The notes beneath the pieces are model-generated. The model was not told where the DNA came from and made no database searches. It saw only the letters and a list, made by a program, of their open reading frames with translations. From Candidatus Thorarchaeota archaeon (GTDB lineage: Archaea > Asgardarchaeota > Thorarchaeia > Thorarchaeales > Thorarchaeaceae): a stretch of DNA of 64,000 nucleotides. Shown here piece by piece: positions 4,802 through 60,875 of this stretch (position 1 is its first letter; the number at the start of each line of letters is the position of its first letter). The position numbers and the translations under genes were made by a program. The DNA lies in NCBI GenBank assembly GCA_038893995.1, contig JAWAQK010000001.1, forward strand, positions 43,776 through 107,775. Direction: 5' to 3'.

Positions 4802-4802
4802 C

Positions 4803-5825: not shown

Positions 5826-7080
5826 CCATCCTATACTCTAGCGAATAGTCCCAGATCTGGGTCCGGATCGTATTCAGGTCGTCGTCTGTTGGCGGAAAGG
5901 GCAGGTTTCTCCAATGACCTATGGAGGCCTGGTAGGGTGTGCAGTTACCCATGGGCCGGTTGCATGCATACTTATGGTTCGGACTCGAGCAGCCAGACGT
6001 CATGAAGGCCTCGCCTCTCGAGATCGTCTGGTCCAGCACCTGTGACGGTACCCCGAAATCAATCAGTTGCCCCATTCTGTTGAACTTCATCTGATCGGCC
6101 CTCGCAATGCCCTCGTTGATCATGTAGCGGGCCAGCTGGACTCTCCGATACGCGCCGAGGGGTGGCTGATGGTGTGTTTCCATGATTGACCCCTCCTCAG
6201 GAAAGAAAGAGAATAGATGAGTGTCTGCACCCCTGTCATATGCGCTCTGTATTGTCTCTATCATCTGCTGCTCGGTCTCGCCTAGCCCAACTATGAGATG
6301 GACACCCACGTTGTGTCGTCCGAATATCTCTACGGCCTCGTCCAGTGTCTTCCAATATCGCTCCCACTTGTGTGGGCCGCGAACACCGCTTCCACGTAGC
6401 CTGTCAAACAGATCAGGCGTAGCGGCATCAATGGCCACCCCAATCTTGTCCGCACCGATTTCTCTGACCCTTGCCAGCCACGCACGATCGACTATCGTAG
6501 GCGTCACCAACACTGAGATGTGGTCCATCACTTCCCGCAGGCTAGACACGACCGTGAGTGCGTCCTGACGCGCCCTGCCGGTTGTGATCATTGAAACGCA
6601 GATTCTCTCCACGTGAGGACATTTCCTGTCGGCAATTGCAGCCTTCACATCGTCAACGGAGACAATCGGCCAATCGACTCGAATGAAGGTGTTATTGACC
6701 CAGTCCGTATTCGTGACTCGAGAACCTGAGAGGCCGCAATAGGCACAACGCGCATGACACCCCTCGTCATACGTGAGCAGCAGATTGATGCAGTAGAGCT
6801 TTGCATCCCTGTAGAATCGGCCGTTCGCCTTACCCATTGTCATATAGGCGGCTAGACTCGTGCGGACAAACTCCGGTGACTCGAGGATCCGATCTTCCTG
6901 ATTGACAACATCACGTACGGACATCTTGGGGGTCACCGACAACGTAGAGAGCCACCTTTGCGCTCTTATTACAGTTTCCATAGGAATATTGCAGGGGGCA
7001 TGAATGACTGCGCCTCTGCGATTGCACCAGGGTCCAGGCTGAGTGAGCACTACTCTTAAGTCTGCAGAGACAGACCGCAT
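5806..7080 (-). CDS. Radical SAM protein. It is a candidate LipS-type lipoyl synthase component.
   Basis: CHARCAYC (Cx3Cx2C). 424 aa. Overlaps the downstream radical-SAM gene by 20 nt and sits in the lplA operon. The start is uncertain (internal Mets at METVIRAQ and MSVRDVV). Confidence 0.55.
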   Translation of the reverse strand: MRSVSADLRVVLTQPGPWCNRRGAVIHAPCNIPMETVIRAQRWLSTLSVTPKMSVRDVVNQEDRILESPEFVRTSLAAYMTMGKANGRFYRDAKLYCINLLLTYDEGCHARCAYCGLSGSRVTNTDWVNNTFIRVDWPIVSVDDVKAAIADRKCPHVERICVSMITTGRARQDALTVVSSLREVMDHISVLVTPTIVDRAWLARVREIGADKIGVAIDAATPDLFDRLRGSGVRGPHKWERYWKTLDEAVEIFGRHNVGVHLIVGLGETEQQMIETIQSAYDRGADTHLFSFFPEEGSIMETHHQPPLGAYRRVQLARYMINEGIARADQMKFNRMGQLIDFGVPSQVLDQTISRGEAFMTSGCSSPNHKYACNRPMGNCTPYQASIGHWRNLPFPPTDDDLNTIRTQIWDYSLEYRMDEPEFD

Positions 7081-22482: not shown

Positions 22483-23031
22483 TTGACTGCCGAATATAGA
22501 TTCAAGGTGGTCATGCTCGGTGATGGCGCGGTAGGGAAGACTGCGCTCACCAACATGTTCACGCAGGGCCACTTCATCTCCGAATACAAACGGACGATTG
22601 GGTCAGACTTTGCAGTCAAACGTGTCTCAGTACCCCAGAGGAATGCACAGGTCACTCTCCAGGTATGGGACTTGGCAGGACAACCACGATTCGAGATAGT
22701 CAGGCAATCTTTCTATCGTGGAGCAAGAGGAGGATTGCTTGTCTACGATGTCACACGACGCAGGACATTCCTGAACCTCGATCACTGGAGACAGGAAACT
22801 AAGAACAGTCTGAGTCGCGAAATACCCCTGGTCGTGGTCGCCAACAAGGTGGATCTGACAGGCGCACGCGTCGTGACGAGGGAGGAGGGAGAACAGTATG
22901 CTGCCAAGAGCGGACTCATATATGTGGAGGCAAGTGCACTCACAGGCCAGAACGTAGAGGATGCATTCGTGGAACTATGTGTCGAGATGATCGACGAGTC
23001 AAAGTCGGAAGCGAGATCTCAGACAGGTTGA
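22483..23031 (+). CDS. Rab/Ras-like small GTPase (Asgard type, no C-terminal prenylation motif).
   Basis: G1 GDGAVGKT. Switch I YKRTIGSDF (Rab-like TIGxDF). G3 WDLAGQ. G4 NKVDL. G5 EASA. 182 aa. Confidence 0.8.
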   Translation: MTAEYRFKVVMLGDGAVGKTALTNMFTQGHFISEYKRTIGSDFAVKRVSVPQRNAQVTLQVWDLAGQPRFEIVRQSFYRGARGGLLVYDVTRRRTFLNLDHWRQETKNSLSREIPLVVVANKVDLTGARVVTREEGEQYAAKSGLIYVEASALTGQNVEDAFVELCVEMIDESKSEARSQTG

Positions 23032-24179
23032 CCCTTCAAGAGGCCTAGATGCTTCTTGCACTGCCAGACGATATAGAAGATGGTCTTGTCCTGCAACACC
23101 TCACTGCCATATTGTGACATCAGGGACTCGAACCTGCGTACCAGATCAACCCTTCTCTCGCCTGCAGTATCGCTCTCGATCTCTCGCAGCAGTGCCTGGA
23201 GGGGCTCAATCATTGCAGTCCTGTCGACGATTTCCCACCGCCTTATTGCTCCGGTGGACTCACAGGTCAGGAACTCGTTCGAATCTGCCACCCATTCTAG
23301 AGAGTCCGGTTCGCCCCGTGTCATTGTCTCGGCCTGCCTAGTGAAATCACTTGTCCGCCACAGGAAGATGTTCTTGTCAGCAGACCCAGACGCAATAAGG
23401 GACCCATCGTGGTTGAATCCCACACAGCGGACCTCTTGTGTATGTCCTGTGAGTGTCTTCTCATGTCTGAGCTGCCCGTCTGAGGCGTCCCAGACCATGA
23501 CCGTCTGATCAGAAGATGCCGAGGCCACCCTGGTACCGTCCCTGGAAAAGCGCACCTGATGCAGTGCAGATCTGTGTTCTTGGAGCCACTCTATCCTCTC
23601 ACCAGTCGTCGGATCCCAGAGACCAATCATCGCATCGACACCACCGGACACTATCCGATCTCCACGAGGATCCCAGTCGCAGGACACTACGTATAGAGAA
23701 TGGCCCTTGAGCTGTCTCAGTGGCTTGGAACTGCCGATGTCCCACACCATGAGGGTCGTATCGCCACTCGATGACACTAACCTATCGCAGTCGGGAGAGA
23801 AGGCGAGCGACAATATGGGATACCGATGACCCTCGAGACGACATATCAACTCTGCACTCCTGACGTCCCAGACCTTGATAACCCTGTCAACACCACCAGA
23901 CGCTATCACATCACTCCGGGGGCTGAATGCAAGGGCTGTGCACAGGAAGTCGTCTGTGATTCGCTGGACCTCTTGGCAGTCTCTCGCATCGTACAGACGT
24001 ATTGTTCGGTCCTGATGAGCAGCAGCGAACATGCGTCCCACTCTGTTGATGGTGAAACGACGAATGATGTCGTCAGCAGTTTCCGCCTCGGGTCTTAGCA
24101 GCCTAGGACGAAGAAACAATGATGGTACGGACTCCGTCATCTTGCTCACCAGAGTGATTGTCATCGTCTCAAGCAGCAT
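23019..24179 (-). CDS. WD40 repeat (7-bladed beta-propeller) protein with a C-terminal helical tail.
   Basis: Seven GH...WD-type repeats (VWDVRS, MVWDIGS, IGLWDPTT, VMVWDASD, IFLWRTSD, IRRWEIVD). The C-terminal roughly 70 aa are non-WD. Starts 82 bp downstream of the second Rab-like gene on the same strand. Confidence 0.8.
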   Translation of the reverse strand: MLLETMTITLVSKMTESVPSLFLRPRLLRPEAETADDIIRRFTINRVGRMFAAAHQDRTIRLYDARDCQEVQRITDDFLCTALAFSPRSDVIASGGVDRVIKVWDVRSAELICRLEGHRYPILSLAFSPDCDRLVSSSGDTTLMVWDIGSSKPLRQLKGHSLYVVSCDWDPRGDRIVSGGVDAMIGLWDPTTGERIEWLQEHRSALHQVRFSRDGTRVASASSDQTVMVWDASDGQLRHEKTLTGHTQEVRCVGFNHDGSLIASGSADKNIFLWRTSDFTRQAETMTRGEPDSLEWVADSNEFLTCESTGAIRRWEIVDRTAMIEPLQALLREIESDTAGERRVDLVRRFESLMSQYGSEVLQDKTIFYIVWQCKKHLGLLKGQPV

Positions 24180-24261
24180 ATCTAAAAAGAGTTGTGAGGA
24201 TGCGATGGGCCCCTCAAGTCAGTATGGTATGGGTGGCTGGTGGTCCGAAGATGAGCATGGC

Positions 24262-24834
24262 TCAGAGAGTACTCTGGCCAATCGACTCGACCATCATGAT
24301 GATGAGCTCAATGAATGCCTTCTCCACGTTGTGTCCGGTCTTGGCAGATGTTTCAAGGAAGACCGTGCTGACCCCACTTTCTCTGAGCGCCTGTGTGAAC
24401 TTCTCACCCTCCTGCGTCGTGACTATCGATCCCTTCATGGCAGGATTGTCCTTGAACTGGTCCCGGAGATCAGTCTTGTTGCCGATGACTACAATAGGAA
24501 TGGTCTTGCCTGTGTTCGCCCAGCACTCCTCAAGCCAGTTGGGAAGATTATCAAATGACGAACGTTCCACAGTCGAGTATACAGCCAATGCTCCCTGGGC
24601 ACCCTTGTAGAAGGTTGATCGTACGTTCTTGAAGTGAGCCTGTCCAGCAAGATCCCATATCTGGATGTGCACCTCTGTGCCACTCTCAAGTGCCAGTTTT
24701 TTCACTGCGAAATCGGCGCCGATGGTGACCATGTATGAGGCCTTGAAACCTTCGCCCATGTAGGTCCGACGGAGCGAAGTCTTACCTACTGAGCCGTCGC
24801 CCATGAGAACTATCTTGAACAATGCTCTCGGCAT
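24262..24834 (-). CDS. Rab/Ras-like small GTPase.
   Basis: G1 GDGSVGKT. TIGADF. WDLAGQ. GNKTDL. ETSAKTGHNVEKAF. 190 aa. Confidence 0.8.
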   Translation of the reverse strand: MPRALFKIVLMGDGSVGKTSLRRTYMGEGFKASYMVTIGADFAVKKLALESGTEVHIQIWDLAGQAHFKNVRSTFYKGAQGALAVYSTVERSSFDNLPNWLEECWANTGKTIPIVVIGNKTDLRDQFKDNPAMKGSIVTTQEGEKFTQALRESGVSTVFLETSAKTGHNVEKAFIELIIMMVESIGQSTL

Positions 24835-25649: not shown

Positions 25650-27888
25650 CGTCAGCCTGGATGACGAAAAAGGGGACCTGATCCTGTGGATAAGGGATGA
25701 GACAGGGACCAAGGGACTCAGATATCGTCGATTCAGACCGTCCCTGTTTGTGAAGACAGACCTGATCGACAGACCGGAGTTTCCGGTCAGAGAACTGATC
25801 AGGAGAGTCAGCGAGCATCCCAGAGTTCTCGGCGTTCGGCTTGTCAAGAGATACCTCTCCGTATATGACGAACATAGGAGCAAAGTACTACAGGTATTCG
25901 TCAGAGGAAACTCATTGCAGAGAGTTGCAGAAGACCTGGAAACATTGCCAGGGGCAATCGTGTTTCATGCAGACCTAGATGCCGTACAGCAGTTCTTCAT
26001 CGACAGAGAGATCTTTCCCTTCAGTCTCATCGAGTATGAGACGGATGGCATCGAGTTGTTCGACATCAGGTGCCTCAGCAGGAGGGAGGAGGTAGAATAC
26101 GAAGTGCCCCCGCTCAGAGAGATACAGATTGAGCCATACATGGAAACGAGAGGCCCCTTTCCCAGAATCGAGGATCCAATTCACCACATTCGAGTTAGAT
26201 TCGACAATCGGACTCTCTACGTGAGAGGACACAGCGAGAGAGAGACACTGTGTCTGTTTCAGGAGGTAATTGACCGCATAGACCCCGATATCATCATCAC
26301 ACGTGGCGGAGACGATGGAGTGCTAAGATATCTCAGCATGAGATACAGGGTCAACAACATGGCCCTGAGACTCTCAAGAGACGGAAGGCCGCTCATCATC
26401 AATGAGAGAGAACCGTCTTCATTCTGGCAGTACAATAGGATCGTCTTCAGACCGGGCAATCAGGTCATGCTCAGAGGCAGGATACATATAGATATGGCAG
26501 ATAGTCTCTACTACGCGCCCTCCAGGGTGGAGGGGGTGATTGAGGGCTGTAGACTTGCGATGGCACCTCCCCAGAGAGTTGCACGTATGTCCATCGGAAG
26601 CGTCAACGCGGCAATGCAGTACTACACCGCAATGAAGAGGGAGATCCTCATTCCCCCAGTCAAGCGCAATCCCGAGTATCTCAAGACAGTGGAGAGGCTC
26701 CTCAATCTTGACAGGGGAGGGCTCATACTTCAGCCACGTCCAGACATCTATGAAAATGTGGGGGAGTTTGATTTCTCATCGATGTATCCGACAATAATGA
26801 TCACCAAGAACATCAGCCCTGAAACTGTCTGCACACGAACCACCTGTCCCTACGATAAGAAATACTGCATCGATGTTCCAGAACTCGACTACAAGATATG
26901 TGGCCGAAAGAGGGGACTTGTGCCCGAGTCATTAGAGCTAGTGGTCAAGAAGAGAAATCAGCTCAAGAGGCTCATGCTTGACGGAAAGGACGTCAGACGG
27001 CATGGAGTCATCCAGAACACCCTCAAGGGAATACTGGTCTCCTGTTTTGGATACCTCGGATTTAGAAACGCCCGATTTGGCCGTGTTGAGGCGCATGCTG
27101 CAGTGACGGCCTTTGCGCGAGACATTCTGCTCAGGACGCAGGAGATTGCGGAGGAGAGAGGCCTTGAGTTGGTGCATGGGATCGTCGATTCTCTCTGGGT
27201 ACACTCGAGAACAGAGTTGGGTCACCAAGACCTGTTGGAGTTCGCCAGACAAGTCACCGAGTGCGTCGGCATTGAGATGACGCTGAAGGGAGTCTACAGA
27301 TGGATGGTCGTGCCATCATCAAGACTGCATCCAGTGGTAGCACCCATGAATCGTTACTACGGAGTATATCGGAATGGTTCAATAAAGGTCAGGGGTATTG
27401 AGGCCAGACGCAGAGACACTTGTCTCTACGTGAGGGACTGTCAAAAGGAGATGATCCGGACGCTTGCACATGCACCAGACAGAGATGCTCTTATCCGGGC
27501 AATACCCGATGCGAGGGCGGTCTGTGAGGAATTCATCCGGAAACTGAGGGAGGGAGATGTTGACATTAGAGACCTGGTCCTGCAGTCAAGACTGACACAT
27601 CATCCGGATGAGTATCATGGTACTACAAGAGTGGCGGTGGCAGCCCGCCAGTTAGCAGGCATGGGACGGAGACTCTACCCTGGACAAAGCGTGCGATACA
27701 TAATGGTGGAGTCCAAGTCAAGGAACCCGGCTCGACGGGTGAGGGCCATCGAGCTGGTAGATGAATCCACAAGATATGACCCGGACGCATATTCGGAACT
27801 CTGTATCCGTGCCTTCGAGAATCTGATACCGGCCCAGTATCTCGACTCATCATCAGAACTGGCTCACTCGGAGACCAGATTGACCTGA
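25573..27888 (+). CDS. polB: Family B DNA polymerase with degenerate exonuclease motifs and a degenerate polymerase motif C (PolB2-like paralog).
   Basis: Motif A DFSSMYPTIM. KxY/motif B region LKGILVSCFGYLGF. Motif C reads HGIVDSLWV instead of YxDTDS. Exo I reads LFDIRCL instead of FDIET, and Exo II reads TRGGDDGVLRYL. 771 aa, no inteins. Confidence 0.8.
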   Translation: MMSESVCWRGGSWEVPAAKKRGWLLDVSLDDEKGDLILWIRDETGTKGLRYRRFRPSLFVKTDLIDRPEFPVRELIRRVSEHPRVLGVRLVKRYLSVYDEHRSKVLQVFVRGNSLQRVAEDLETLPGAIVFHADLDAVQQFFIDREIFPFSLIEYETDGIELFDIRCLSRREEVEYEVPPLREIQIEPYMETRGPFPRIEDPIHHIRVRFDNRTLYVRGHSERETLCLFQEVIDRIDPDIIITRGGDDGVLRYLSMRYRVNNMALRLSRDGRPLIINEREPSSFWQYNRIVFRPGNQVMLRGRIHIDMADSLYYAPSRVEGVIEGCRLAMAPPQRVARMSIGSVNAAMQYYTAMKREILIPPVKRNPEYLKTVERLLNLDRGGLILQPRPDIYENVGEFDFSSMYPTIMITKNISPETVCTRTTCPYDKKYCIDVPELDYKICGRKRGLVPESLELVVKKRNQLKRLMLDGKDVRRHGVIQNTLKGILVSCFGYLGFRNARFGRVEAHAAVTAFARDILLRTQEIAEERGLELVHGIVDSLWVHSRTELGHQDLLEFARQVTECVGIEMTLKGVYRWMVVPSSRLHPVVAPMNRYYGVYRNGSIKVRGIEARRRDTCLYVRDCQKEMIRTLAHAPDRDALIRAIPDARAVCEEFIRKLREGDVDIRDLVLQSRLTHHPDEYHGTTRVAVAARQLAGMGRRLYPGQSVRYIMVESKSRNPARRVRAIELVDESTRYDPDAYSELCIRAFENLIPAQYLDSSSELAHSETRLT

Positions 27889-29219
27889 GATAGGATCAAT
27901 GGCCTGAGCTCACGGAGAGGTATTCCCGTCTCAAGGGAGATCTTACCCACATCATCTGCCTCAGGTTTGATGTTGACAACGCTACCATCTGGGGAACGTG
28001 AGACCTTGACACGGACCATGTACTCCCTCTCGTCAATCCTGACCCTGCATACCATGGACTCTCTGAACGTCTTCAGACGTTGCCAGCTGGTGTAACGGAT
28101 GCCCAAGGTCCCAAGGTGGTGTATCATCAACCTTGCAATTGTCTTCAGTCCGGTCCTAGGAGCCACGACCTGAACTATTGTACACGGACGATTCTTCTTG
28201 CCGTAGGCCGGGATCATCACTACATCGTAGGCCAGCCCCTCGGATAGGAGAAAGTCGAACAGCTGGCCCATTACTTCGCCGTCCACATCGTCCACTGTGG
28301 ACTCAATGACTACGACCTCGTCGGTGTCCCACGCGTCGAGGGGCTCAGTCGTTTCAGGGACCGCCTCCTTAGCGGTCACGGCGGCCGAGACAGGGGCTCC
28401 AGTTGCCTTGGCACGGAGACGTGGTTCGACCTCTGTAGATTCTACGCTCGGCACCTCGATGTCGCCGATGAGTATTCTCATCGTGTTAGGAAGGGTACCA
28501 AGGTCCCTTGCGCCAAAACCAACGCCCTGTCGCTTGATCATGAAACCCTCCAGACTATCGACATAAGACTGTACCAGTGCAGCAATGAGGGCGGCGCCAG
28601 TTGGTGTTAGCACCTCGGTCTTTGCATCACCAGGGTGATGGGGTATATTGTGCTTTGTCAGGATCTCAACGACCGCTGGCACTGGGACCTGCATCGTGCC
28701 ATGTTCAGTCACAATCTGGCCACTGCCAACCGCAACATGCGTAGCCATGAACTTCGCTCGGTCAATCAGACGGGCCCTCTCCAAGAGATACACAGTCCCC
28801 AGGATGTCAAGCATCGTGTCAATCGAGCCAGTCTCATGCAGCTTCAGATTCTCAATCGTGGTACGGTGTGCCTTCATCTCAGCCTCGAGCAATATCTCAA
28901 GCGCGGTGCGTGCGATCTTCTTGGCTGCGGGGGACAACTCGAGTTCCTCGCTGACTGTTGAGAGCATTCCATGCAATGAGCCCGGAGAAAAGCGGACTCC
29001 CCTGTCACACGACACGTCAATTCTCTTGCCCGACCCTGATTCCGAGACCCGTGAGTTGACCCTGACTCGAAGTTGTGGGTCATATATCAGGAGACTTGCA
29101 GCCACGGGAACCAACGCCTGGTCCTCCCCGAGGAGGTCTACCAATGCAGACAGGAACATGTCTCCAGATGCTCCAGCCCTGGAAACATCAAAGAGGACTA
29201 TACTCTCCGGCAAGCACAC
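27864..29219 (-). CDS. larC: LarC-family (DUF111) protein, a putative nickel-insertion / CTP-dependent enzyme.
   Basis: N-terminus LFDVSRAGASGDMFLSALVDLLGE matches the DUF111/LarC start (FDCFSGISGDMLLGALVDLG). 451 aa. Confidence 0.6.
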   Translation of the reverse strand: MCLPESIVLFDVSRAGASGDMFLSALVDLLGEDQALVPVAASLLIYDPQLRVRVNSRVSESGSGKRIDVSCDRGVRFSPGSLHGMLSTVSEELELSPAAKKIARTALEILLEAEMKAHRTTIENLKLHETGSIDTMLDILGTVYLLERARLIDRAKFMATHVAVGSGQIVTEHGTMQVPVPAVVEILTKHNIPHHPGDAKTEVLTPTGAALIAALVQSYVDSLEGFMIKRQGVGFGARDLGTLPNTMRILIGDIEVPSVESTEVEPRLRAKATGAPVSAAVTAKEAVPETTEPLDAWDTDEVVVIESTVDDVDGEVMGQLFDFLLSEGLAYDVVMIPAYGKKNRPCTIVQVVAPRTGLKTIARLMIHHLGTLGIRYTSWQRLKTFRESMVCRVRIDEREYMVRVKVSRSPDGSVVNIKPEADDVGKISLETGIPLRELRPLILSQVNLVSE

Positions 29220-29378
29220 ATTGCTCCTTGGGGTGTGCGGCGGGCGCGCAGTTTCGATGCTAATCGGTCCTAAATAACATTATGACCGGGCCTCGACACT
29301 AGGATTGACAGACGCCAAACGATATCAGGCATGATGAGATGGTGCCCCTCAGGGAGCCATCACCTGTCTGGCAGTTCC

Positions 29379-30173
29379 TCAGTCATGATGTAATGTCTGC
29401 CGATTTCCCCGGCGCCACTGCTCAAATATGGCCATGTACATACACTCATCTGGGGGAATCCACATCTCAGAGGAATCGAATGAGCGGTCCACAAACTCAA
29501 CGGGAGCGTCTCTCACAAGCACTGCAGGAACGGACTCATCGGACTCTCCCATCACTGCTGTACAGGCAGAGGCGATATTGTCAGCAACGGCCCTCCGAGT
29601 GATCCTGAGACGATTCCCGAAGAGGTCCTGTCGACCCCGATCGTCAGCTACCGGGCGAAATCCGGAGACTCCCAACGCCATGCCTATGTTACCGAGCCGC
29701 AGGGGCTGAGTCCGACTGTCAATCACCATCACGCCTATGGATTTGCCGAACCGTCTCCGGACCTCCTGCCTGATTCTCTCTGCGCTTCCAGCGGGGTCTC
29801 TGGGTAACAGACATGCAAACCCTGGAGGCACATTCGACTTGTCGATACCAGCATTGGCCATCAGCGTGTTGTCCTTGATCGTGAGGACCACGTGAGGAAT
29901 CCCGCCCAGGATCTCGTCAGACTCGCGCAGGATCAGCTCGGCGACGGCCGGCAGGAGATCGTACTTCTTCGCGAGCTCCTCGGCGCGGGGAGATACTGTC
30001 ACCGTGGATAGTCGAATGACGCATCCCTCAGTCGTCCCAAGCGGAGTCTCAGCGACAACTAGAATGTCACGATCCTGAAACTCGTACCCCGCCCGGTGCA
30101 TTCCTTCGGTTATCACGTCAAGAATGTTGTCAGTAGGAGTTATGATGCGTGTCCTTATTGGCAAGACCAGCAA
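29379..30173 (-). CDS. cofE: CofE-family protein (F420-0:gamma-glutamyl ligase-like).
   Basis: The conserved CofE blocks are all present: NAGIDKSNV, LLPRDPAGSAERIR, GKSIGVMVIDS, RAVADNIASACTAVMGESDESVPAVLVRD. 264 aa. Confidence 0.65.
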   Translation of the reverse strand: MLVLPIRTRIITPTDNILDVITEGMHRAGYEFQDRDILVVAETPLGTTEGCVIRLSTVTVSPRAEELAKKYDLLPAVAELILRESDEILGGIPHVVLTIKDNTLMANAGIDKSNVPPGFACLLPRDPAGSAERIRQEVRRRFGKSIGVMVIDSRTQPLRLGNIGMALGVSGFRPVADDRGRQDLFGNRLRITRRAVADNIASACTAVMGESDESVPAVLVRDAPVEFVDRSFDSSEMWIPPDECMYMAIFEQWRRGNRQTLHHD

Positions 30174-30333
30174 TCTTGGACCCTCGACTCCGTACGACAG
30201 GAATCTCTAGAAAAAGGCACCGTCATGCAGGTACTATTGCCGCGCAACTCGTATGCCGACGTGGCTACGCGATCAGGCGGGTTGTGTCAGGGAGGTATGT
30301 CTATATCGATGATGCTGCTGGGGGAGCAACAAC

Positions 30334-31251
30334 ATGTTCGTGTTCAAGAGAGAGCAGACAGTCTTTGACGCAGGAGGTGTCAGGATAGGCGGTCAGCCAG
30401 GTGAGAATCCCACAGTCCTCGTTGGAGGTCTGTTCTTCAAGGGTCAGCCGATAGTTGAGGATGTCAGCAGTGGGAGGTTTGATCAGGCACTGGCTGCTGA
30501 ATGGATATCGACTGCGATGGGCATGTCCCAGAGGACTGGGCATCCGCTCATCCTGCAGGTCTATGGCGCCACGCCAGAGGCAATGGAGAGGCATCTACAG
30601 TGGGTCACAGAGAAGTTCGATGGCCCCTTCATGTTTGAGTCTACCAACAGTGATGCAAGGAAGCGAGGTATCACCTACTGCAGTGAAGTCGGACTCGAGA
30701 ACAGGACCATTTACAACTCGGTCAACATGTCCATGAGGGATGACGAGAGAGAAACTCTGAGGAACAGTCCGATACACATGGCGGTCATCCTTGGATGGTC
30801 ACCCCGGATTGTCTCAATGCTGGACAGGATGGAACTGATCAGGTCCACATTGAGTGAGGCGGAGGGCCTGGGAATCGATGTCTTCCTCGTGGATCCAGCC
30901 GTGATGCCAGTCGGAGCGGGCTATGGGAGTGAGTACAGGACCCTGATCTCCATCAAGGCAGAACTTGGACTCCCGACCTGTCTTGGGCCTCACAATGCGG
31001 TGTCGTCCTGGAGCTACCTCAGACAACACAGTTCCGACAATAGAGACATGTATCTTGCATCAATCGCTGCGTCTGTCGCTGCGGCTCAGGTCTGTGCCGC
31101 GGACTGCATAATGTTCGGTTCTCTGCAGTGGGCGAGGGAGATATTCGCATCAGTGGCACTCGTTCAGAACGCCATAGTGACAGCTGTGGGAGAGGCTGAC
31201 GAGACACTCGGGCTGAAGCGAGATCTGTTCGAACCACCAACATGCAGATAG
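30334..31251 (+). CDS. mtrH: MtrH-like corrinoid:tetrahydromethanopterin/tetrahydrofolate methyltransferase.
   Basis: MFVFKREQTVFDAGGVRIGGQPGENPTVLVGGLFF...GHPLILQVYGATPEAMERHLQWVTEKFDGPFMFEST matches MtrH/pterin-binding (DHPS-like) methyltransferases. Confidence 0.75.
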   Translation: MFVFKREQTVFDAGGVRIGGQPGENPTVLVGGLFFKGQPIVEDVSSGRFDQALAAEWISTAMGMSQRTGHPLILQVYGATPEAMERHLQWVTEKFDGPFMFESTNSDARKRGITYCSEVGLENRTIYNSVNMSMRDDERETLRNSPIHMAVILGWSPRIVSMLDRMELIRSTLSEAEGLGIDVFLVDPAVMPVGAGYGSEYRTLISIKAELGLPTCLGPHNAVSSWSYLRQHSSDNRDMYLASIAASVAAAQVCAADCIMFGSLQWAREIFASVALVQNAIVTAVGEADETLGLKRDLFEPPTCR

Positions 31252-31264
31252 GGGGTGCTGAGAC

Positions 31265-31957
31265 ATGACCAATTCTGACAAGCGAAAGTGGCCGCCGGTA
31301 CCAGGTGACTACCGTGTCGGGAATGCCAGCAGCCCTGTCGCCATCTGCACACTGGGAAAATGGATTGATGTCGATGTCGACTACGCGATTCTTGGCACCT
31401 GCAAGACAGAGAACATAGGAATTGAACGGATCATCGTAAATACCATATCAAATCCTCACATCCGATTCTTCATTCTTGCAGGCCCCGAGGTCCCAGGACA
31501 CAGGACCGGTGCCTCGATAAGAGCCCTGTTTCAGAACGGGGTCGATCCCAGAGACCGCAGAATAGTAGGAGCCGAGGGCGCAATACCCTACATCGAGAAC
31601 ATTCCACTCGAGGCAATCGAACGTTTCCGGAGGCAGCTTACGCTCTGCGACATGTTAGATGTGGTAGAACCCGAGAGAATCAGGGCGGCGGCAGTGGCCC
31701 TTATCTCAAGACCAGTGGAACCTCTCGCAGAGGAACCGATGTGGGTTGACTTTGGGTCAGGCAAGCGAAGTACGCAGCATGCGATGCAGGCAGGGAGTGT
31801 CTCTTTAGTCCCCGAGTTAGGACTGGTCCTGGATCCGCGCATATCCATGGTATCCAGACAGAGCCGAAGTGCAACGGTGACCCAGCATCCGTCACCAGCG
31901 GGCGTGGAGATTCAGACTAGGGATGGGGGAACACTACTGATGGCAAGGGGGTATTGA
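31265..31957 (+). CDS. mtrA: MtrA-like corrinoid-binding protein (soluble, no C-terminal TM anchor).
   Basis: YRVGNASSPVAICTLG...TCKTENIGIERIIVNTISNPHIRFFILAGPEVPGHRTGASIRALFQNGVDPRDRRIVGAEGAIPYIENIPLEAIERFRRQ aligns closely with the MtrA N-terminal cobamide-binding domain, including the His in GHxTG. Confidence 0.75.
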   Translation: MTNSDKRKWPPVPGDYRVGNASSPVAICTLGKWIDVDVDYAILGTCKTENIGIERIIVNTISNPHIRFFILAGPEVPGHRTGASIRALFQNGVDPRDRRIVGAEGAIPYIENIPLEAIERFRRQLTLCDMLDVVEPERIRAAAVALISRPVEPLAEEPMWVDFGSGKRSTQHAMQAGSVSLVPELGLVLDPRISMVSRQSRSATVTQHPSPAGVEIQTRDGGTLLMARGY

Positions 31958-31960
31958 GAG

Positions 31961-32896
31961 TTGTTTGTGTTCGAGAGAGAACAATACATCTACAACATCG
32001 GAGGCGTCAGGATAGGGGGCAACCCGGGCGAGAGAGCGACTGTACTGGCTGGCACCATATTCTATTCGGGAGACAAGACTGTCAGCGACCCCAGTGCGGG
32101 TGTGTTCGACAGGACCGCGGCCGAGACACAGATCCGGAACCAGGATGCGATCTCAGAGACTACGGGAAATCCTGCACTGGTACAGGTATTCGCAGAGTCG
32201 GAGAGCGCCATGACGAGGTATATCGACTTCGTGACCGAGATGACAGACGCTCCGTTCCTCATTGACTCCACGGATCCGAAGGTCCGGATAGCCGGTCTCA
32301 GACACGCAGAAGAGGTGGGAGTCATAGGTCGGGCCATCTACAACTCGCTCAATGTCAGCATCAACACAGAAGAGTTGCAGACTCTCTCCGAACTGAGACC
32401 AGAGGCCGCGATCATATTGGCTTTCAATCCTGCCGACACGTCAATTGCTGGAAGACGTGCAGTGCTAGAGGAACCGTATGCTGAGTATGGCGAGGGTCTG
32501 CTATCACTTGCCAAGAGGGTCGGAATAACAAAGCCCCTCGTCGATACCGCAACTACTGCTATGGGCGCAGGAGCAGGTCCATCTGTGTCTTTCGTGTTCG
32601 TGGCCAAGAGCGTCTATGGTCACCCAACAGGATCTGGAATCCACAACGCTCCATCATCGTGGCCATGGCTGAGAGCGCACAAGAAGGTCAACCGTGCGGC
32701 CTTTGAGGCATGTGATGTCGCATCGGCACTGCTCGTACATTCTATGGGGGCGGACTTCATCTTGTACGGGCCCATCGTGAATGCAGACAGGGTCTTTCCT
32801 GTGGTGGCCATGGCTGATGTCCTGGCCGCAGAGTCTCTGTCTACGGAGTTTGGTCTGGGGCCACCTGAGAATCACCCATTCCGAAGGCTCCTATGA
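31961..32896 (+). CDS. mtrH: MtrH-like methyltransferase (second paralog).
   Basis: MFVFEREQYIYNIGGVRIGGNPGERATVLAGTIFYSGDKTVSDPSAGVFDRTAAE...DAPFLIDSTDPKVR. Starts 3 bp after mtrA. Confidence 0.75.
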   Translation: MFVFEREQYIYNIGGVRIGGNPGERATVLAGTIFYSGDKTVSDPSAGVFDRTAAETQIRNQDAISETTGNPALVQVFAESESAMTRYIDFVTEMTDAPFLIDSTDPKVRIAGLRHAEEVGVIGRAIYNSLNVSINTEELQTLSELRPEAAIILAFNPADTSIAGRRAVLEEPYAEYGEGLLSLAKRVGITKPLVDTATTAMGAGAGPSVSFVFVAKSVYGHPTGSGIHNAPSSWPWLRAHKKVNRAAFEACDVASALLVHSMGADFILYGPIVNADRVFPVVAMADVLAAESLSTEFGLGPPENHPFRRLL

Positions 32897-32918
32897 CAGA
32901 TGTCGAGGAATCCGGTCA

Positions 32919-34355
32919 ATGAGGTACAGGATCATTCACCCGCGCGGCATAAGCATGCTCTCGGTCAGGCTGGGCTCCTTCTTCACTGTTGCGTCGGTTG
33001 AACTCGGCAATACCACGACCAAGTGTATCGTGGTCACCACTAATCTGAAGACGGCCGAGGTATTTGAGATTGGGAAGGAGGTGCGGATGACGCGTGACAT
33101 CAGATTACCATGGGACGGGGAGACACCATTTGGGCATACAATCACCCGCAGGCCTCTCACGAGAGAGGCTGTATCGGAGATGGTGAGTGACATCCTGACA
33201 ACAACGGTGAAGCGCAATGGTATGGATATGAAGACTGATCTTGACTTCGTCGTACGCTCTACAGGCGTTACGGCGGGATTCGCACATCCTGATGAAGTAG
33301 ATGGGATGATCAGAGCGCTTGCAGACGGTTGTCTGAATGCGGGCGTGCCACCTGGAAAGATGATGGCCGCAATGTCAGTAATCAACCTCAACCCACGATT
33401 GCGCTCCCACAGCTGGTTGAACAAGGTGCACTTCGATGGTGCAGTTGCGAGCTGTCTTCCACCGGCAGGCAGACAGGTGGTGGCAAATGAGATGGAGGGC
33501 GAGCTTGTCACTGCCGGAATAAAGGGGGCCGCCAAGGGTACGGGTATTGACTTCCGCAATCCAGTCGCCACGATGGACTTTGGAACGACCCTCGCAGGGA
33601 GAATCACAGACGACTCCTATCCGTACGCAAACACAGTGGCCTCCTTTGTTGGCCTTGCAGGAGCCATTCCTGACGCCGTTGTGAGAGGGACCGGTTTCGT
33701 AGACAGGAACGAGGGATGCACCATCGACCTCACCTTACCGCACAAGAGAGAGGAGATAGAGGAATCGTCTTCGTGGTTGGAGGAGGCCAGCAGGATCATT
33801 ACGGTCGATAGGGTGCCCAGGGGAGTGGAGAGGTTCGGGACTGTACCCGTAGACATGAGGGCTGCAGAGGAGGCAGACCTGACCTTGCTCGGAGTCGATG
33901 TGGGGTGCAATGGATCTAGACTAGCTGATCTTGGTGAGATAGGACTCAGCATTGTTCAGGAGAAGGGCCCAGAAATCTTGCACTCATTTCTTGATCATCT
34001 TCAGGCACGCATAGTCCACAGACTGATAGAACTCGCTGAGTCAGAGGGACTGGTCAACGGACGCACATCGATAGGCCTCACAGGACGGGCGATAACAACT
34101 GGAATGAAACCTGAGCTGATCAGCAGCTGGCTGGAACGGTCTGGCGTATTGCCCCAGAGAGAGCAGGACATCGTAGTCTTTGTAGAAGATGGCCTCGCAT
34201 TTGGCGCAGCTGTGGCCGCCAGGTGCATGAACTCACTGGGAACGCCTCATGAGCCAATGGGAGGACGTAGGGGAGACAGATGCATAATGGGGGCGCGCAT
34301 GGCAATCCAGTCAGGCAGGGCTGGGGAGGTCAGGAGGAACTCGGCAGACAACTGA
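32919..34355 (+). CDS. ASKHA-fold (acetate/sugar kinase / BadF-BcrA-HgdC-like) ATPase-like protein. It is a possible corrinoid activase or chaperone.
   Basis: N-terminal phosphate-1-like motif VASVELGNTTTKCIVV. Further Gly-rich D/G motifs (MDFGTTLAG, LGVDVGCNGS, IGLTGRAITTG). 479 aa from the internal ATG 32919, 22 bp after mtrH. No ferredoxin Cys cluster. Confidence 0.4.
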   Translation: MRYRIIHPRGISMLSVRLGSFFTVASVELGNTTTKCIVVTTNLKTAEVFEIGKEVRMTRDIRLPWDGETPFGHTITRRPLTREAVSEMVSDILTTTVKRNGMDMKTDLDFVVRSTGVTAGFAHPDEVDGMIRALADGCLNAGVPPGKMMAAMSVINLNPRLRSHSWLNKVHFDGAVASCLPPAGRQVVANEMEGELVTAGIKGAAKGTGIDFRNPVATMDFGTTLAGRITDDSYPYANTVASFVGLAGAIPDAVVRGTGFVDRNEGCTIDLTLPHKREEIEESSSWLEEASRIITVDRVPRGVERFGTVPVDMRAAEEADLTLLGVDVGCNGSRLADLGEIGLSIVQEKGPEILHSFLDHLQARIVHRLIELAESEGLVNGRTSIGLTGRAITTGMKPELISSWLERSGVLPQREQDIVVFVEDGLAFGAAVAARCMNSLGTPHEPMGGRRGDRCIMGARMAIQSGRAGEVRRNSADN

Positions 34356-34394
34356 ACAAGTGCCGAAAAGTGCAGGCCCCTCTCCGGGATCATT

Positions 34395-35756
34395 TCAGGT
34401 CAGATAGGACTTCTCAGGAGGAGAATCGATGCACTTCAGACTACCTTCGGGCAGCCCCCTGGCTAGGTGCTCAGCAACATCCTTGCTGAGGATGACCTCA
34501 ACAAGAATCTGATCCTCGCCGAACTCCTCTCGCTCAATCCGAGCGACCTCATGAATCCACGACAACAACCTCATGCCCTCAGAGCCATATGGGAGGGTCA
34601 CCACAAATCTCTGTTCGGAGGGAAGCATCGATATGATCTGATCGATCAGAAGATCGATGTTGTGACCAGTCTTCGCTGACACCGGTACCACTTCTCTCGA
34701 GAAATGGCTGAGCAGTTGTAATCGGTCGGGCACTAGGGCGGGGTCTATCATATCGATCTTGTTGAGTACGATTGCCAGGTTCGGTGTGAGGACTCCGATC
34801 GACTCGAGTGTTGAGAAACATGCCTCCGTCTTTCGGACCATCTCGTTCGAGGGCTCCGAACCATCAACAACGAGCAGGACCACATCTGCAGTTCCGATCT
34901 CCCTCAGGGTCGTGTTGAATGCCTGAAGTAGGGAACGAGGGAGATCGCTCACAAAACCGACGGAGTCTGTGACCACAATGTTCCTTCCTGTGACACTCAT
35001 CCTCGACGTCTTTGTCGACAGCGTGGTGAACATCTGGTCACTCACTTCAGCATCAGACTGTGTCAGAGCCCTATGCAATGTACTCTTGCCCGCGTTGGTA
35101 TAGCCTGCGAGTGCTACCTCGTAGTATCCCTCACGGATCCGCTTCTTTCTCTTCAGATCCTCTGCATCCGAGATCGTTCTGAGCTTGTCTCTTATGATGG
35201 CGATACGCCTTCTGACCTCCATCATCCTGAGGTTGAGAATGTCTTCACCGGCACCTACCTGCTGCCCAACCGGACGAGCACCTGTATGCTCCCTCTGCAG
35301 ACGTTTCCGCAGCTGGTGACGGATGAAGGGCAGTTCATATCTCAGCCGGGCCTCCTCGATCTGAAGCTTCGCCTGGGGTGTCCTCGCGTGGAGATCAAAG
35401 ATCTCGAGGATGACCTGACCCCTGTTCCGGACATCAGTCTTCCACGCTCTCATAAGACGATACATCTGGCTTGATGTGAGATCCGGAGACACTAACACTA
35501 CGTCCACCTCGTTGTTCCTGATGTACTCTCCAATCTCATCCACCTTACCAGCACCAATTCCGTACCTCGTCTGATGTCGGCCCACTATGTCAAACCGACC
35601 TACCACGTCGTACCCTGCTGTCGATGCAAGTGCCTCAAACTCAGCAAGTAGATTCTCCGAGGCAGGGTTCCTGCGCTGTATGATGATGGCTCTCTGTCGT
35701 TCCACACGGAACGGACCCATGGATACTGTCTTAAGTAGTTCGGGCCGGGACACCAC
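34395..35756 (-). CDS. hflX: GTPase HflX.
   Basis: HflX N-terminal domain. G-domain VALAGYTNAGKSTL...DSVGF...LNKID. 453 aa. Confidence 0.8.
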   Translation of the reverse strand: MVSRPELLKTVSMGPFRVERQRAIIIQRRNPASENLLAEFEALASTAGYDVVGRFDIVGRHQTRYGIGAGKVDEIGEYIRNNEVDVVLVSPDLTSSQMYRLMRAWKTDVRNRGQVILEIFDLHARTPQAKLQIEEARLRYELPFIRHQLRKRLQREHTGARPVGQQVGAGEDILNLRMMEVRRRIAIIRDKLRTISDAEDLKRKKRIREGYYEVALAGYTNAGKSTLHRALTQSDAEVSDQMFTTLSTKTSRMSVTGRNIVVTDSVGFVSDLPRSLLQAFNTTLREIGTADVVLLVVDGSEPSNEMVRKTEACFSTLESIGVLTPNLAIVLNKIDMIDPALVPDRLQLLSHFSREVVPVSAKTGHNIDLLIDQIISMLPSEQRFVVTLPYGSEGMRLLSWIHEVARIEREEFGEDQILVEVILSKDVAEHLARGLPEGSLKCIDSPPEKSYLT

Positions 35757-35821
35757 AGTTCACCGTGAGAGAATACTACTGAGATTCATGAGACCCCCAA
35801 GACCTGCAAGGGGATAGGAAG

Positions 35822-37879
35822 ATGGATGTCTTCGAGTTGAGGGACCGAGATGGTCTTGCCAGACTTGGCCGACTGATCACAAGACACGGGACTGTGACAA
35901 CACCTCTCCTGATGCCGGTGGTACATCCCGGGAAGTCGACCGTCACTGCACAGGAACTGCGAAGCGAGTTTGGATTCGAGATGGTGATAGCCAACTCGTT
36001 CATAATCCGGTCTCGGCCGGAATATAGGGACGTCGCGCTCGAGAGAGGAATACATGCCCTGCTAGACTTCAACGGGCCGGTGATGACTGACTCAGGAACG
36101 TTCCAGATGTACTATCATTCGCTGCCTCGTGAGACTATCGACCCCATCGAGATCGTCAGATTTCAACGGAGCATCGGGACGGACATTGGTACGATACTTG
36201 ACGTGTTCTCAAGACCCGACGCAGGAAGAGAGAAGATCGAGGAGGACGTCAGGACATCAGTTGAGAGGGCGAGGAGGTCGGTTGGGGAAAAGGGAGACAT
36301 GCTCCTGGCAGGAACAGTGCAGGGAGGGGCCTACACTGACCTGAGAGAGGCATGCGCACGAGAGCTCGCCTCAATGGACTTTGATCTACACCCAATCGGC
36401 GGGGCAGTACCACTCATGGAGAGTTACCGGTATTCAGACATTGTCAGGGTCGTCCTTGCCGCAAAGAGGAATCTCCCAGCTAACCGGCCCGTACATCTGT
36501 TTGGGTGTGGACACCCGATGTTCCTGGCTCTCGCAGTGGCCCTGGGATGCGATCTGTTTGACTCGGCGTCATATGCTAAGTTTGCAGAGGACGGAAGACT
36601 ACTCCTACCAAGTGGTACTGTGCATCTGGACGACCTGAATGAGATGCCCTGCGAATGCAAGATATGCTCAAGCACGACACCTGAGGAGATCAGACGACTG
36701 GAGAGGGACCAGCGCGAAGACATGATCACTCGACACAACCTCTACGTCATGGCCGCCGAGATGAGGAGAGTACGGCAGGCGGTCCGAGAAGAGAAGATAC
36801 TCGAGCTTGCAGCGCTCAGGGCGAGGTCGCATCCTCGGCTAATCGAGGCGCTGATGCAGCTGCTCAACCACGCAGACCAGATCGAGGCTGAGGACCCCGT
36901 GGGGAAGACTGCATCGGTGTTCTACACAGGACCTGAGACCGCCCTTCATCCCTCACTGTACCGCTTTCACAAGAGGGTACTCGAGAGGTATCCGTATCTC
37001 GAAACGGACACCTTGCTCCTAGTCCCAGACATGGGGTACGTTCCATTCTCAGAGTCCAATCCGACAATCGAAAGTCTGGCCGGCACTCACACCCCCGAGG
37101 AGCTCATCGTGGTGTATGTGACTCCCATTGGTGTTGTCCCGTGGGAGTACGGACAGGTCTATCCGGCCCAGCAGTGCGTCTTCGGGAGGATGCTAGATAC
37201 AGATACCCTTGATACGGTGGCCAGGAGAACAAGTCAGTTTGTTGATACTGTGACCTGCCGCCGTGTCGTGTGGGTTCAGAGAGAGCATGTAGTTGACTCG
37301 GTGCGTCAGAGGATGAAATGGTCTGTCGAGCCAGATACGATCAGTCCATCGGACCTGTCGAAAGATCTGGTACCGGAGGCAGAGGGTCGTGAGAAACTTG
37401 CCGTGGAGCGAACTCTGAAGGCCCTGTTTCGATACCAATGGGGGGTCGATATCACGCGGGCAATTCCCATAGAGCAGATGAGGTGCGAATTCTCGAGGCG
37501 CACAGGCAAGATGAGACATCTGTTCCACGGGGAAGAATTGCTCTTCACGATTGTCCCCACCACAGGTCTCATGACGCCAACTGTTCGAGGTGCGCAGGTG
37601 CTCCTCGATGCAGGCATCGGCGACGATTACCGAGTTGTAGTATCTGACGAGGCAGCACCCTTCATCCGACAGGGAAAGTCAGTGATTGCCAAGTTCGTCA
37701 TGAGGGCCGGTACTGACCTGAGGCCTGGCGAGGAGGTGCTGATCCTCGATCAGGACGGAAATCTGCTTGGAACCGGACCTGCACTGTTGAGTGGCCGAGA
37801 GATGTTGACGTTCAAGAGGGGAGTGGCTGTAAATACTAGGCACCAGCAGAGGCAGCAGCCTGCGATGAGTGACGCGTAA
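35822..37879 (+). CDS. tgtA: Archaeosine tRNA-guanine transglycosylase (ArcTGT) with C-terminal PUA-type domains.
   Basis: TIM-barrel TGT core (VMTDSGTFQMY, GGAVPLM, CxCxxC Zn site CECKICS). 685 aa, the long C-terminal extension is typical of archaeal TgtA. Confidence 0.85.
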   Translation: MDVFELRDRDGLARLGRLITRHGTVTTPLLMPVVHPGKSTVTAQELRSEFGFEMVIANSFIIRSRPEYRDVALERGIHALLDFNGPVMTDSGTFQMYYHSLPRETIDPIEIVRFQRSIGTDIGTILDVFSRPDAGREKIEEDVRTSVERARRSVGEKGDMLLAGTVQGGAYTDLREACARELASMDFDLHPIGGAVPLMESYRYSDIVRVVLAAKRNLPANRPVHLFGCGHPMFLALAVALGCDLFDSASYAKFAEDGRLLLPSGTVHLDDLNEMPCECKICSSTTPEEIRRLERDQREDMITRHNLYVMAAEMRRVRQAVREEKILELAALRARSHPRLIEALMQLLNHADQIEAEDPVGKTASVFYTGPETALHPSLYRFHKRVLERYPYLETDTLLLVPDMGYVPFSESNPTIESLAGTHTPEELIVVYVTPIGVVPWEYGQVYPAQQCVFGRMLDTDTLDTVARRTSQFVDTVTCRRVVWVQREHVVDSVRQRMKWSVEPDTISPSDLSKDLVPEAEGREKLAVERTLKALFRYQWGVDITRAIPIEQMRCEFSRRTGKMRHLFHGEELLFTIVPTTGLMTPTVRGAQVLLDAGIGDDYRVVVSDEAAPFIRQGKSVIAKFVMRAGTDLRPGEEVLILDQDGNLLGTGPALLSGREMLTFKRGVAVNTRHQQRQQPAMSDA

Positions 37880-60820: not shown

Positions 60821-60875
60821 CTTGCGCAGCGAGTATGCGCATCGACAATCAGCTGCGGGGACGAGAACCGGAACT

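Follow-up and report, generated by a model that had tools for sequence, protein, structure and literature searches.

The 64,000-nucleotide stretch of DNA analyzed here (the window), part of contig JAWAQK010000001.1 of a Candidatus Thorarchaeota archaeon, contains a four-gene operon encoding two MtrH proteins, an MtrA protein, and methanogenesis marker 14 (DUF2114). By its sequence relationships, this operon is the Thorarchaeota counterpart of the non-membrane, catalytic portion of the methanogen methyltransferase Mtr. We tentatively propose, with somewhat less than even confidence, that it encodes a soluble corrinoid methyl relay acting on methyl-tetrahydromethanopterin (methyl-H4MPT), in which marker 14 would serve as a nucleotide-dependent factor for the maintenance or activation of MtrA.

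The gene cluster is already known, published, and correctly annotated, since the tie between marker 14 and Mtr was described by Borrel 2014 and Adam 2022. Borrel 2014 (PMC4153887) found arCOG04866, the cluster to which marker 14 belongs, near mtr operons and absent from the Mtr-less Methanomassiliicoccales. Adam 2022 (PMC9635834) described "canonical MtrAH without other subunits" plus marker m26 (DUF2114) in Thorarchaeia and linked m26 to Mtr through its distribution, its phylogeny, and its synteny, "even including the Thorarchaeia clade." Outside Mtr lineages, marker 14 has been reported in these published distribution analyses (PMC9635834, PMC4153887) only as a divergent form in Persephonarchaea. 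In the searchable literature, no function is assigned to marker 14 beyond being "involved in the functioning of Mtr."

Operon organization and conservation in Thorarchaeota

The operon occupies positions 30334 to 34355 of the + strand and consists of the following genes.

30334-31251, + strand: mtrH1, divergent MtrH-family pterin methyltransferase paralogue, 305 aa (PF02007)
31265-31957, + strand: mtrA, anchor-less corrinoid-binding MtrA with a soluble C-terminal extension, 230 aa (PF04208)
31961-32896, + strand: mtrH2, canonical-type MtrH, 311 aa, TTG start (PF02007, TIGR01114)
32919-34355, + strand: DUF2114, methanogenesis marker 14 (arCOG04866, marker m26), 478 aa (TIGR03285, PF09887)

The gaps between the genes are 13, 3, and 22 nt, and a purine-rich, Shine-Dalgarno-like GGGGG/GAGG motif precedes each of the four. 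The open reading frames (ORFs) lie where a first-pass annotation, made from the sequence alone, had placed four tightly spaced genes with these gaps. Marker 14 starts at an ATG inside a 524-aa ORF, a choice backed by homologues; for mtrH2, the public annotation places the start 2 codons later. The host is a Thorarchaeota metagenome-assembled genome (MAG) and a non-methanogen. The remaining genes in the window are archaeal, and NCBI holds identical marker 14 and MtrA proteins under "Candidatus Thorarchaeota archaeon."

The families in the window were scanned in non-overlapping ORFs of at least 150 aa. No match to MtrC, MtrD, or MtrE was found among them, nor among the called genes of two related loci (L082 and L084). 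The earlier statement that mtrB to mtrG are missing thus stands for MtrC, MtrD, and MtrE; MtrB, MtrF, and MtrG were not specifically searched for. Because MtrC, MtrD, and MtrE were not found, the system would have no Na+ pumping and no known coenzyme M site. The anchor-less MtrA, the Thorarchaeota host, and the lack of an MtrC, MtrD, or MtrE gene in the window support a cytoplasmic, non-methanogenic corrinoid system, as the first-pass annotation had suggested.

A scan for relatives with one genome per species yielded 568, of which the best 80 loci were kept, comprising 22 Thorarchaeota and 58 methanogen loci. The mtrH1-mtrA-mtrH2-DUF2114 block is present in all 22 Thorarchaeota species loci, wherever the contig reaches, with protein identities of 50 to 65% across the species. 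The same four genes in all 22 loci indicate that the arrangement is not due to chance. In all 17 Thorarchaeota loci that extend far enough, metF lies directly upstream of mtrH1, often preceded by metV. The gap between metF and mtrH1 is 4 to 9 bp in L082 and L084, the two loci with called genes. The window is an exception, as its four-gene block is inverted in place between flanks that are collinear with those of other Thorarchaeota (L082 and L084), and metVF is not present in the 64 kb. The inversion of the block between collinear flanks indicates that the four genes move as a unit. A search for inverted repeats that could explain the inversion returned only pairs at chance level, none of them at the block ends.

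MtrA without a membrane anchor

The MtrA protein matches PF04208 with 174.2 bits (cut-off, 25) and the subfamily model NF002126 with 173 bits (cut-off, 161), and it falls below the full-length equivalog model TIGR01111 (171.8 versus a cut-off of 249.15). Residues 6 to 169 match the structure of Methanothermobacter marburgensis MtrA (8q3v_A) with an E value of 8e-47 (phmmer). The GHxTG motif reported in the first-pass annotation is G78-H79-R80-T81-G82. In the published cobalamin-ligand network of MtrA (Wagner 2016), the axial ligand is His84, its hydrogen-bond partner is Glu54, and a GAIPF/YxEN motif (109-GAIPF/YxEN) forms a meander. The corresponding residues of the window protein, His79, Glu49, and GAIPYIEN at positions 105 to 112, are kept in all 19 Thorarchaeota MtrA orthologues. 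In an AlphaFold2 (AF2) model, the N-terminal domain has a predicted local distance difference test score (pLDDT) above 90 and superimposes on the crystal and cryo-electron microscopy structures 5l8x, 5laa, and 9qtr with root mean square deviations (rmsd) of 1.0 to 1.4 Å and target-normalized TM-scores of 0.84 to 0.90. The model thus supports a Rossmann-type corrinoid-binding fold, the presence of which had been left for structural modelling to decide.

The window MtrA has no transmembrane (TM) helix, as previously noted; its maximum Kyte-Doolittle hydropathy over 19 residues is 1.16, at a position that is not C-terminal, whereas all methanogen MtrA proteins examined have a hydrophobic C-terminal helix with values of 1.7 to 2.8. 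The TM helix is missing from all 19 Thorarchaeota MtrA proteins, which carry instead a conserved, soluble tail of about 55 aa with the motifs LLPEFG, HPS, and GT(I/L)L.GKE. In the window protein, the tail spans residues 176 to 230 (positions 31790 to 31957) and is predicted to be beta-rich (pLDDT, 50 to 67). No fold match was found for these residues. Thorarchaeal MtrA therefore keeps the full predicted cobamide-binding site and has a conserved soluble tail in place of the membrane helix.

Two MtrH paralogues

The two genes flanking mtrA both encode MtrH-family proteins, in agreement with the first-pass annotation. MtrH1 scores 248.5 bits against PF02007 (cut-off, 22.8) and 241.5 against TIGR01114, under the equivalog cut-off of 271.4, and MtrH2 scores 348 and 356 bits, respectively, the latter over that cut-off. 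MtrH2 also matches Methanosarcina mazei MtrH (9qtp_o) with 250.7 bits. The two window proteins share 39% identity. In a distance tree with bootstrap that included methanogen MtrH, MtgA, and 8z9u_B, MtrH1 and MtrH2 formed separate clades, each with 100% bootstrap. The MtrH1 clade lies on a long branch, with 34% identity to MtrH2 and to methanogen MtrH alike. MtrH2 grouped with methanogen MtrH with 58% bootstrap (mean identity, 49%), and a sister relationship of MtrH1 and MtrH2 was recovered in just 11% of replicates.

Within-clade conservation is 0.67 for MtrH1 and 0.66 for MtrH2, and this equality indicates that MtrH1 is not decaying. The catalytic His-Asn pair (H220-N221 in MtrH1 and H228-N229 in MtrH2) is invariant in both clades; PDB entries 6sj8 and 6sjp of the homologue MtgA differ at the equivalent Asn. 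MtrH1 carries the fixed changes T32G, Y35F, N70H, Y87H, D103E, F156W, G225C, and P275S (M. mazei numbering). The conserved MtrH pocket motifs TGNP, IDS, and YGP and Phe156 read TGHP, FES, YGS, and Trp in all 19 MtrH1 sequences, and they are retained by MtrH2. Both the remaining MtrH proteins and the folate-dependent MtgA conserve the positions replaced in MtrH1. Equal conservation, the kept His-Asn pair, and fixed replacements at conserved sites together mark MtrH1, as far as can be judged from alignment, as a functional but re-specialized paralogue.

In the Mtr complex, MtrA docks on one of the two subunits of an MtrH dimer (bioRxiv 10.64898/2026.07.03.736320). The MtrA-docking contacts seen in the M. 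mazei structure are mixed in the paralogues: MtrH2 retains Glu79, which MtrH1 replaces with Arg, whereas Met200-Pro201 is found in MtrH1 but not in MtrH2.

Methanogenesis marker 14

The 478-aa protein matches TIGR03285 with 598.6 bits (cut-off, 274) over residues 21 to 464 and PF09887 (DUF2114) with 612 bits, and the identical NCBI entry is named [quoted passage not shown] The first-pass annotation missed this named family, along with its published link to Mtr and the usual metF partner of the operon. The Thorarchaeota host places the protein outside the marker's original, methanogens-only definition, an exception already noted by Adam 2022 (PMC9635834). The family is small, with 124 clusters at 50% identity among 1.84 billion representatives.

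DUF2114 was the sole Pfam family to match at an E value of ≤10; no BcrAD_BadFG (PF01869), kinase, or Kae1 profile did so. A BadF/BcrA/HgdC identity is thereby ruled out. The VELGNTTTK motif on which the earlier comparison with these proteins was based is present, and in the absence of a profile match the likeness amounts to a resemblance of motif. A sugar-kinase identity, named at the outset as the outcome that would overturn the assignment, is ruled out in the same way. No credible sequence match was found in the PDB (best E values, 0.25 with phmmer and 0.64 with the family profile), and a sequence-level link to RACo or any other solved protein was thus rejected.

The ASKHA fold suggested earlier is borne out by structure prediction. 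The AF2 model (pLDDT, 79.6; predicted TM-score, 0.84) matched Kae1/TsaD, RACo, glucokinase, Hsp70/DnaK, and FtsA in Foldseek with a probability of 1.0. The highest TM-scores were those of Kae1, TsaD, and Qri7 (TMt, 0.48 to 0.53) and sugar kinases; RACo (3zyy and 4c1n) stood at ranks 3 to 5 with TM-scores of 0.28 to 0.35. Marker 14 is thus, on its predicted structure, a member of the ASKHA superfamily with two RNase-H-like domains and no special closeness to RACo. As the first-pass annotation stated, it has no ferredoxin domain.

When the 22 Thorarchaeota and 58 methanogen sequences are aligned, identity reaches at least 95% at 104 positions, among them GNTTTK (30-35), D220-F-G-x-T-L-x-G-R228, and G386-x-T-G-R390. 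The putative phosphate-1 (ELGNTTTK, 28-35), phosphate-2 (DFGTTLAGR, 220-228), and adenosine (GLTGR, 386-390) motifs, assigned by pattern and position in the model, are near-invariant. In addition, C138, C436, and C455 are invariant in all 80 sequences, and C36 is present in about 80%.

Genomic contexts of DUF2114 in methanogens

In 23 of the 58 methanogen loci, from Methanobacteriales and one contig labeled Methanomicrobiales, DUF2114 is encoded downstream of mtrH and on its strand. In Methanosarcinales, Methanococcales, and Methanothrix, its neighbors are mostly housekeeping genes (DNA repair, PAC2, and Pth2); no evident link to Mtr was seen among those of Methanosarcinales and Methanococcales, and nothing there was clearly informative. 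Two neighbors were each seen once: a divergent gene for an FrhB-like, F420-dependent Fe-S protein upstream of DUF2114 in Methanosarcina (L025, 7823-9034, - strand) and a thioredoxin gene directly upstream in Methanolobus (L054, 9590-9991, + strand). Both are possible redox partners. In a Methanobacteriota MAG (L060, 10001-12778), DUF2114 is followed on its own strand, after about 650 bp, by a MetE-like gene (11990-12778), and mtrA and mtrH lie 3.5 to 5 kb upstream.

A diverged DUF2114-like subgroup, about 400 aa in length, has neither the GNTTTK motif nor the cysteine tail. In all four informative contigs, which come from one sequencing study and related organisms, its gene is head-to-head with one or two Meth_synt genes (split MetE or core methionine synthase, Meth_synt_2) of about 330 aa, at the following loci.

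L088, 2551-4836: diverged DUF2114 and Meth_synt
L089, 667-2929: diverged DUF2114 and Meth_synt
L090, 1708-4976: diverged DUF2114 and Meth_synt
L091, 5381-9176: diverged DUF2114 and Meth_synt

In L091, MptE-like and DHNA pterin-biosynthesis genes are close to the diverged gene.

Some records carry unexpected taxon labels. Thorarchaeota-type MtrA proteins P0321 and P0360 are labeled Deltaproteobacteria or Lokiarchaeota, and methanogen-type DUF2114 loci L047, L077, and L079 are assigned to MAGs of Bacteroidaceae, Bacteroidales, and Acidiferrales. Errors of binning or labeling in public records are the probable cause.

Proposed function and alternative explanations

In the relay that we tentatively propose, MtrH2 would shuttle methyl groups between methyl-H4MPT and the Co(I) cobamide on MtrA, like MtrH in Mtr, and MtrH1 would occupy the place held by the membrane subunits MtrCDE in methanogens. 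MtrH1 may serve as the second methyltransferase, with another methyl-pterin as its substrate, most plausibly the MetF product, which would give a relay from tetrahydrofolate (H4F) to H4MPT; alternatively, it may be the partner subunit in an MtrH1/MtrH2 heterodimer. Marker 14 would be an ASKHA-fold, nucleotide-dependent service factor for the MtrA/MtrH module, most likely returning Co(II) cobamide to Co(I) or loading cobamide, and would do the same job for Mtr in methanogens. Since MtrA and MtrH are the sole Mtr subunits kept by Thorarchaeota, marker 14 must have one or the other as its partner. A maintenance role on the MtrA cobamide is favored because the gene layout matches that of corrinoid systems serviced by RACo/RamA-type ATP-dependent activators, and by this analogy a function as a reductive activator is plausible.

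Both the H4MPT and H4F branches of the Wood-Ljungdahl pathway have been reported in Thorarchaeota (PMC6737245). Their coexistence and the gene order metF-mtrH1-mtrA-mtrH2 suggest a folate-to-methanopterin methyl relay. In its most specific form, the methyl group would pass from methyl-H4F, made by MetF, through MtrH1, methyl-cobamide on MtrA, and MtrH2 to methyl-H4MPT and then to the archaeal carbon monoxide dehydrogenase/acetyl-CoA synthase, with marker 14 as a new class of ASKHA corrinoid activase that has no Fe-S domain and also serves as the ATP-dependent activator of Mtr in methanogens. This complete chain is unlikely. We know of no enzyme for which methyl transfer between two pterin pools has been described.

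Several observations weigh against the proposed relay or parts of it. RACo is no closer to marker 14 than are Kae1/TsaD, sugar kinases, and Hsp70 (E values of about 1e-6 and TM-scores of 0.3 to 0.5), and phmmer and the family profile found no sequence similarity of marker 14 to any solved protein. The protein has no Fe-S domain or Cys-rich cluster motif, just the three invariant cysteines. The MtrH1 pocket is not simply of the folate type, since the altered residues are conserved even in the H4F-dependent MtgA; to judge from these replacements, it could bind something else, or nothing. Asgard-type MetF has been proposed to act on H4MPT and not on H4F (PMC9012536), which would weaken a relay between two pterins. 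With metVF absent from the window, any link to MetF is also dispensable as far as the operon is concerned. Finally, the diverged DUF2114 subgroup adjoins split-MetE genes, which are cobalamin independent, and these neighbors point away from a strictly corrinoid-centered role for the wider family.

The split-MetE neighbors of the diverged subgroup, the MetE-like gene of L060, and a prediction concerning MesA together make anabolic methyl supply the main rival to the proposed relay. MtrH and MtrA would here pass the methyl group of methyl-H4MPT to a core methionine synthase (MesA-like), with marker 14 as an adaptor or chaperone in this transfer and not as a redox activator. MtrA has been predicted as the methyl donor for MesA in methanogens (Price et al., PMC7857596), and a need for methionine would account for the retention of MtrAH in a non-methanogen. 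However, neither the window nor the surroundings of the cluster out to 10 kb in Thorarchaeota loci contain a Meth_synt gene, and split MetE needs no corrinoid. The head-to-head arrangement, although present in four of four contigs, amounts to few independent observations given their common origin, and the subgroup may differ in function since it lacks the GNTTTK motif and the cysteine tail. The second MtrH would also be left without a role. This explanation is rather unlikely.

Alternatively, marker 14 may not be an activator directed at a protein but a kinase of small molecules or a transferase like Kae1/TsaD, which would modify, or help to make, a pterin or cobamide cofactor for MtrA/MtrH. 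The top TM-scores of the model, which belong to Kae1, TsaD, Qri7, and sugar kinases, are in line with such an activity, as are the CofE-family glutamyl ligase gene that adjoins marker 14 in all Thorarchaeota loci reaching that far and the MptE-like and DHNA genes near the diverged subgroup. Nevertheless, published distribution ties marker 14 to Mtr, the divergent Persephonarchaea form apart, and neither a kinase nor a Kae1 profile matches it, so that a cofactor enzyme is improbable.

A methylotrophic entry point, with a substrate-specific methyltransferase encoded elsewhere that methylates MtrA from methanol, methylamines, or methoxylated aromatics and MtrH passing the methyl group to H4MPT and the Wood-Ljungdahl pathway, has been put forward in the literature as a general hypothesis on MtrAH in non-methanogens (PMC9635834, PMC11291895), and mtrH occurs near trimethylamine methyltransferase genes in some Asgard genomes (PMC11291895). 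For the operon described here it is quite improbable: no MtaB-, MttB-, MtgB-, or MtaC-type gene was found among the scanned ORFs of the window or among the genes called in L082 and L084 within 10 kb, the cobalamin-binding mode of MtrA is unique and its known docking partners are just MtrH and MtrCDE, and the conserved upstream partner, MetF, is an enzyme of the reductive methyl branch.

That the genes are decaying leftovers of an ancestral Mtr complex with no current function, as the term "remnants" of ancestral methanogenesis used by Adam et al. (PMC9635834) might imply, is contradicted by the conservation pattern and very improbable, with four intact reading frames in 22 species, conserved ligand and catalytic residues, 104 marker 14 positions at least 95% identical between Thorarchaeota and methanogens, and a conserved new C-terminal tail gained by MtrA.

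Comparison with known systems

The operon shares canonical-type MtrA and MtrH2 homologues with methanogen Mtr (MtrA-H), and marker 14 accompanies both systems. In contrast to the methanogen system, the Thorarchaeota MtrA ends in a new soluble tail with no TM helix, mtrH is present as two non-identical copies where methanogens have one, and the operon is usually partnered by metF. The MtrAH plus m26 remnant of Adam 2022 and Borrel 2014 is the same locus in the same lineage, with identical genes and DUF2114-mtrA-mtrH synteny; the parts of these texts that were available are silent on two MtrH clades, the anchor-less tail, the metF linkage, and the fold of m26. In the literature searched, no published mention was found of two distinct, equally conserved MtrH clades and the altered MtrH1 sites, of a soluble tail replacing the membrane helix of thorarchaeal MtrA, of metF as the usual first gene of the operon and an inverted block without metVF, or of the kept putative nucleotide-binding motifs and three invariant cysteines of marker 14.

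The AcsE-CoFeSP-RACo and MtaABC/MtgABC plus RamA-type systems likewise co-encode a methyltransferase, a corrinoid protein, a methyltransferase, and an ASKHA protein, and MtgA of the MtgABC system is an MtrH-family enzyme. However, their corrinoid proteins are of the MtaC/CoFeSP type, whereas the one here is of the MtrA type with its unique binding mode, and marker 14 differs from RACo/RamA activators in having neither an Fe-S domain nor detectable sequence similarity to RACo or RamA. Soluble MtrA and MtrH homologues encoded together are also seen with the MtxXAH of Methanosarcinales and with the short cytoplasmic MtrA homologues of methanogens. The window operon differs in having no MtxX, and methanogen cytoplasmic MtrA homologues are shorter than 215 aa and lack the Thorarchaeota tail. 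The window MtrA is also under the cut-off of NF010654 (157 versus 279), which we take to be the Mtx-type model. Finally, the MtrA-MtrH fusions of Atabeyarchaeia and Freyarchaeia (PMC11291895) are another case of Asgard MtrA and MtrH modules outside methanogenesis, but they are single polypeptides of a phylogenetically distinct clade with no marker 14 reported, in contrast to the separate, canonical-type genes described here.

Flanking genes and other features of the window

The following features lie upstream of the operon.

30174-30333, no strand: intergenic region, 160 bp, between the cofE-like gene and mtrH1, presumed operon promoter (gene layout)
29379-30173, - strand: CofE-family gamma-glutamyl ligase gene (PF01996, TIGR01916)
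27864-29219, - strand: LarC-family nickel-insertion protein gene (PF01969, LarC1, LarC2)

Judging from the gene layout, the divergent region is presumed to be the promoter region of the operon in the present genome. This promoter context would be specific to the inverted arrangement, since mtrH1 elsewhere follows metF after 4 to 9 bp (L082 and L084). No riboswitch or other RNA element was matched in Rfam across positions 27000 to 36500, including the divergent region. The CofE-family gene matches PF01996 (E value, 5e-72) and TIGR01916 (196.4 versus a cut-off of 180.65), and the LarC-family gene matches PF01969 (E value, 3.6e-87) and both the LarC1 and LarC2 models above their cut-offs. The divergent cofE and larC genes of the first-pass annotation are therefore confirmed, but their position is weak evidence of a functional link to the operon. 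In other Thorarchaeota loci, cofE and then larC follow DUF2114 on the same strand; however, the adjacency says little about function because the whole 20-kb neighborhood is syntenic within Thorarchaeota and the pair is not near DUF2114 in methanogen loci. The inverted block and the missing metVF further indicate that co-transcription with metF, cofE, or larC is dispensable. Downstream of the operon are genes for HflX and an archaeosine tRNA-guanine transglycosylase.

Elsewhere in the window (22483-24834 and 61607-62440), genes encoding two Ras-family GTPases, a WD40 beta-propeller protein, and an Arf-like GTPase are of the eukaryote-signature kind. They are syntenic in L082 and L084, which have a Roadblock/LC7 gene in addition, and are in keeping with an Asgard host. 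A radical SAM protein with an HMPTM zinc-ribbon, of the methanopterin-methylating type (50141-51844, - strand), suggests that the organism makes a methanopterin-type cofactor. A creatininase-family protein (60822-61610, + strand) may be ArfB-like. At positions 3209 to 7080 (- strand), a lipoate-protein ligase catalytic domain fused to DUF116 adjoins two radical SAM genes, which may be an archaeal two-protein lipoyl synthase arrangement. In addition, two EF-2/EF-G family paralogues are encoded within the 64 kb (15640-17724, + strand, and 57888-60182, - strand).

Implications

Mtr is the sole energy-conserving step of hydrogenotrophic methanogenesis, and to our knowledge no protein has been assigned to keeping its cobamide in, or returning it to, the active Co(I) state. 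For the Methanobacterium methyltransferase, an ATP-dependent reductive activation was reportedly described in biochemical work of the late 1980s, and we know of no protein ever assigned to it. Among the conserved methanogenesis marker proteins, marker 14 is one to which no function has been assigned. Thorarchaeota offer a natural minimal system of MtrA, MtrH, and marker 14, all of them soluble, which suits work with recombinant proteins. If the two MtrH paralogues differ in substrate, the operon would show how an Asgard archaeon joins its folate and methanopterin one-carbon pools.

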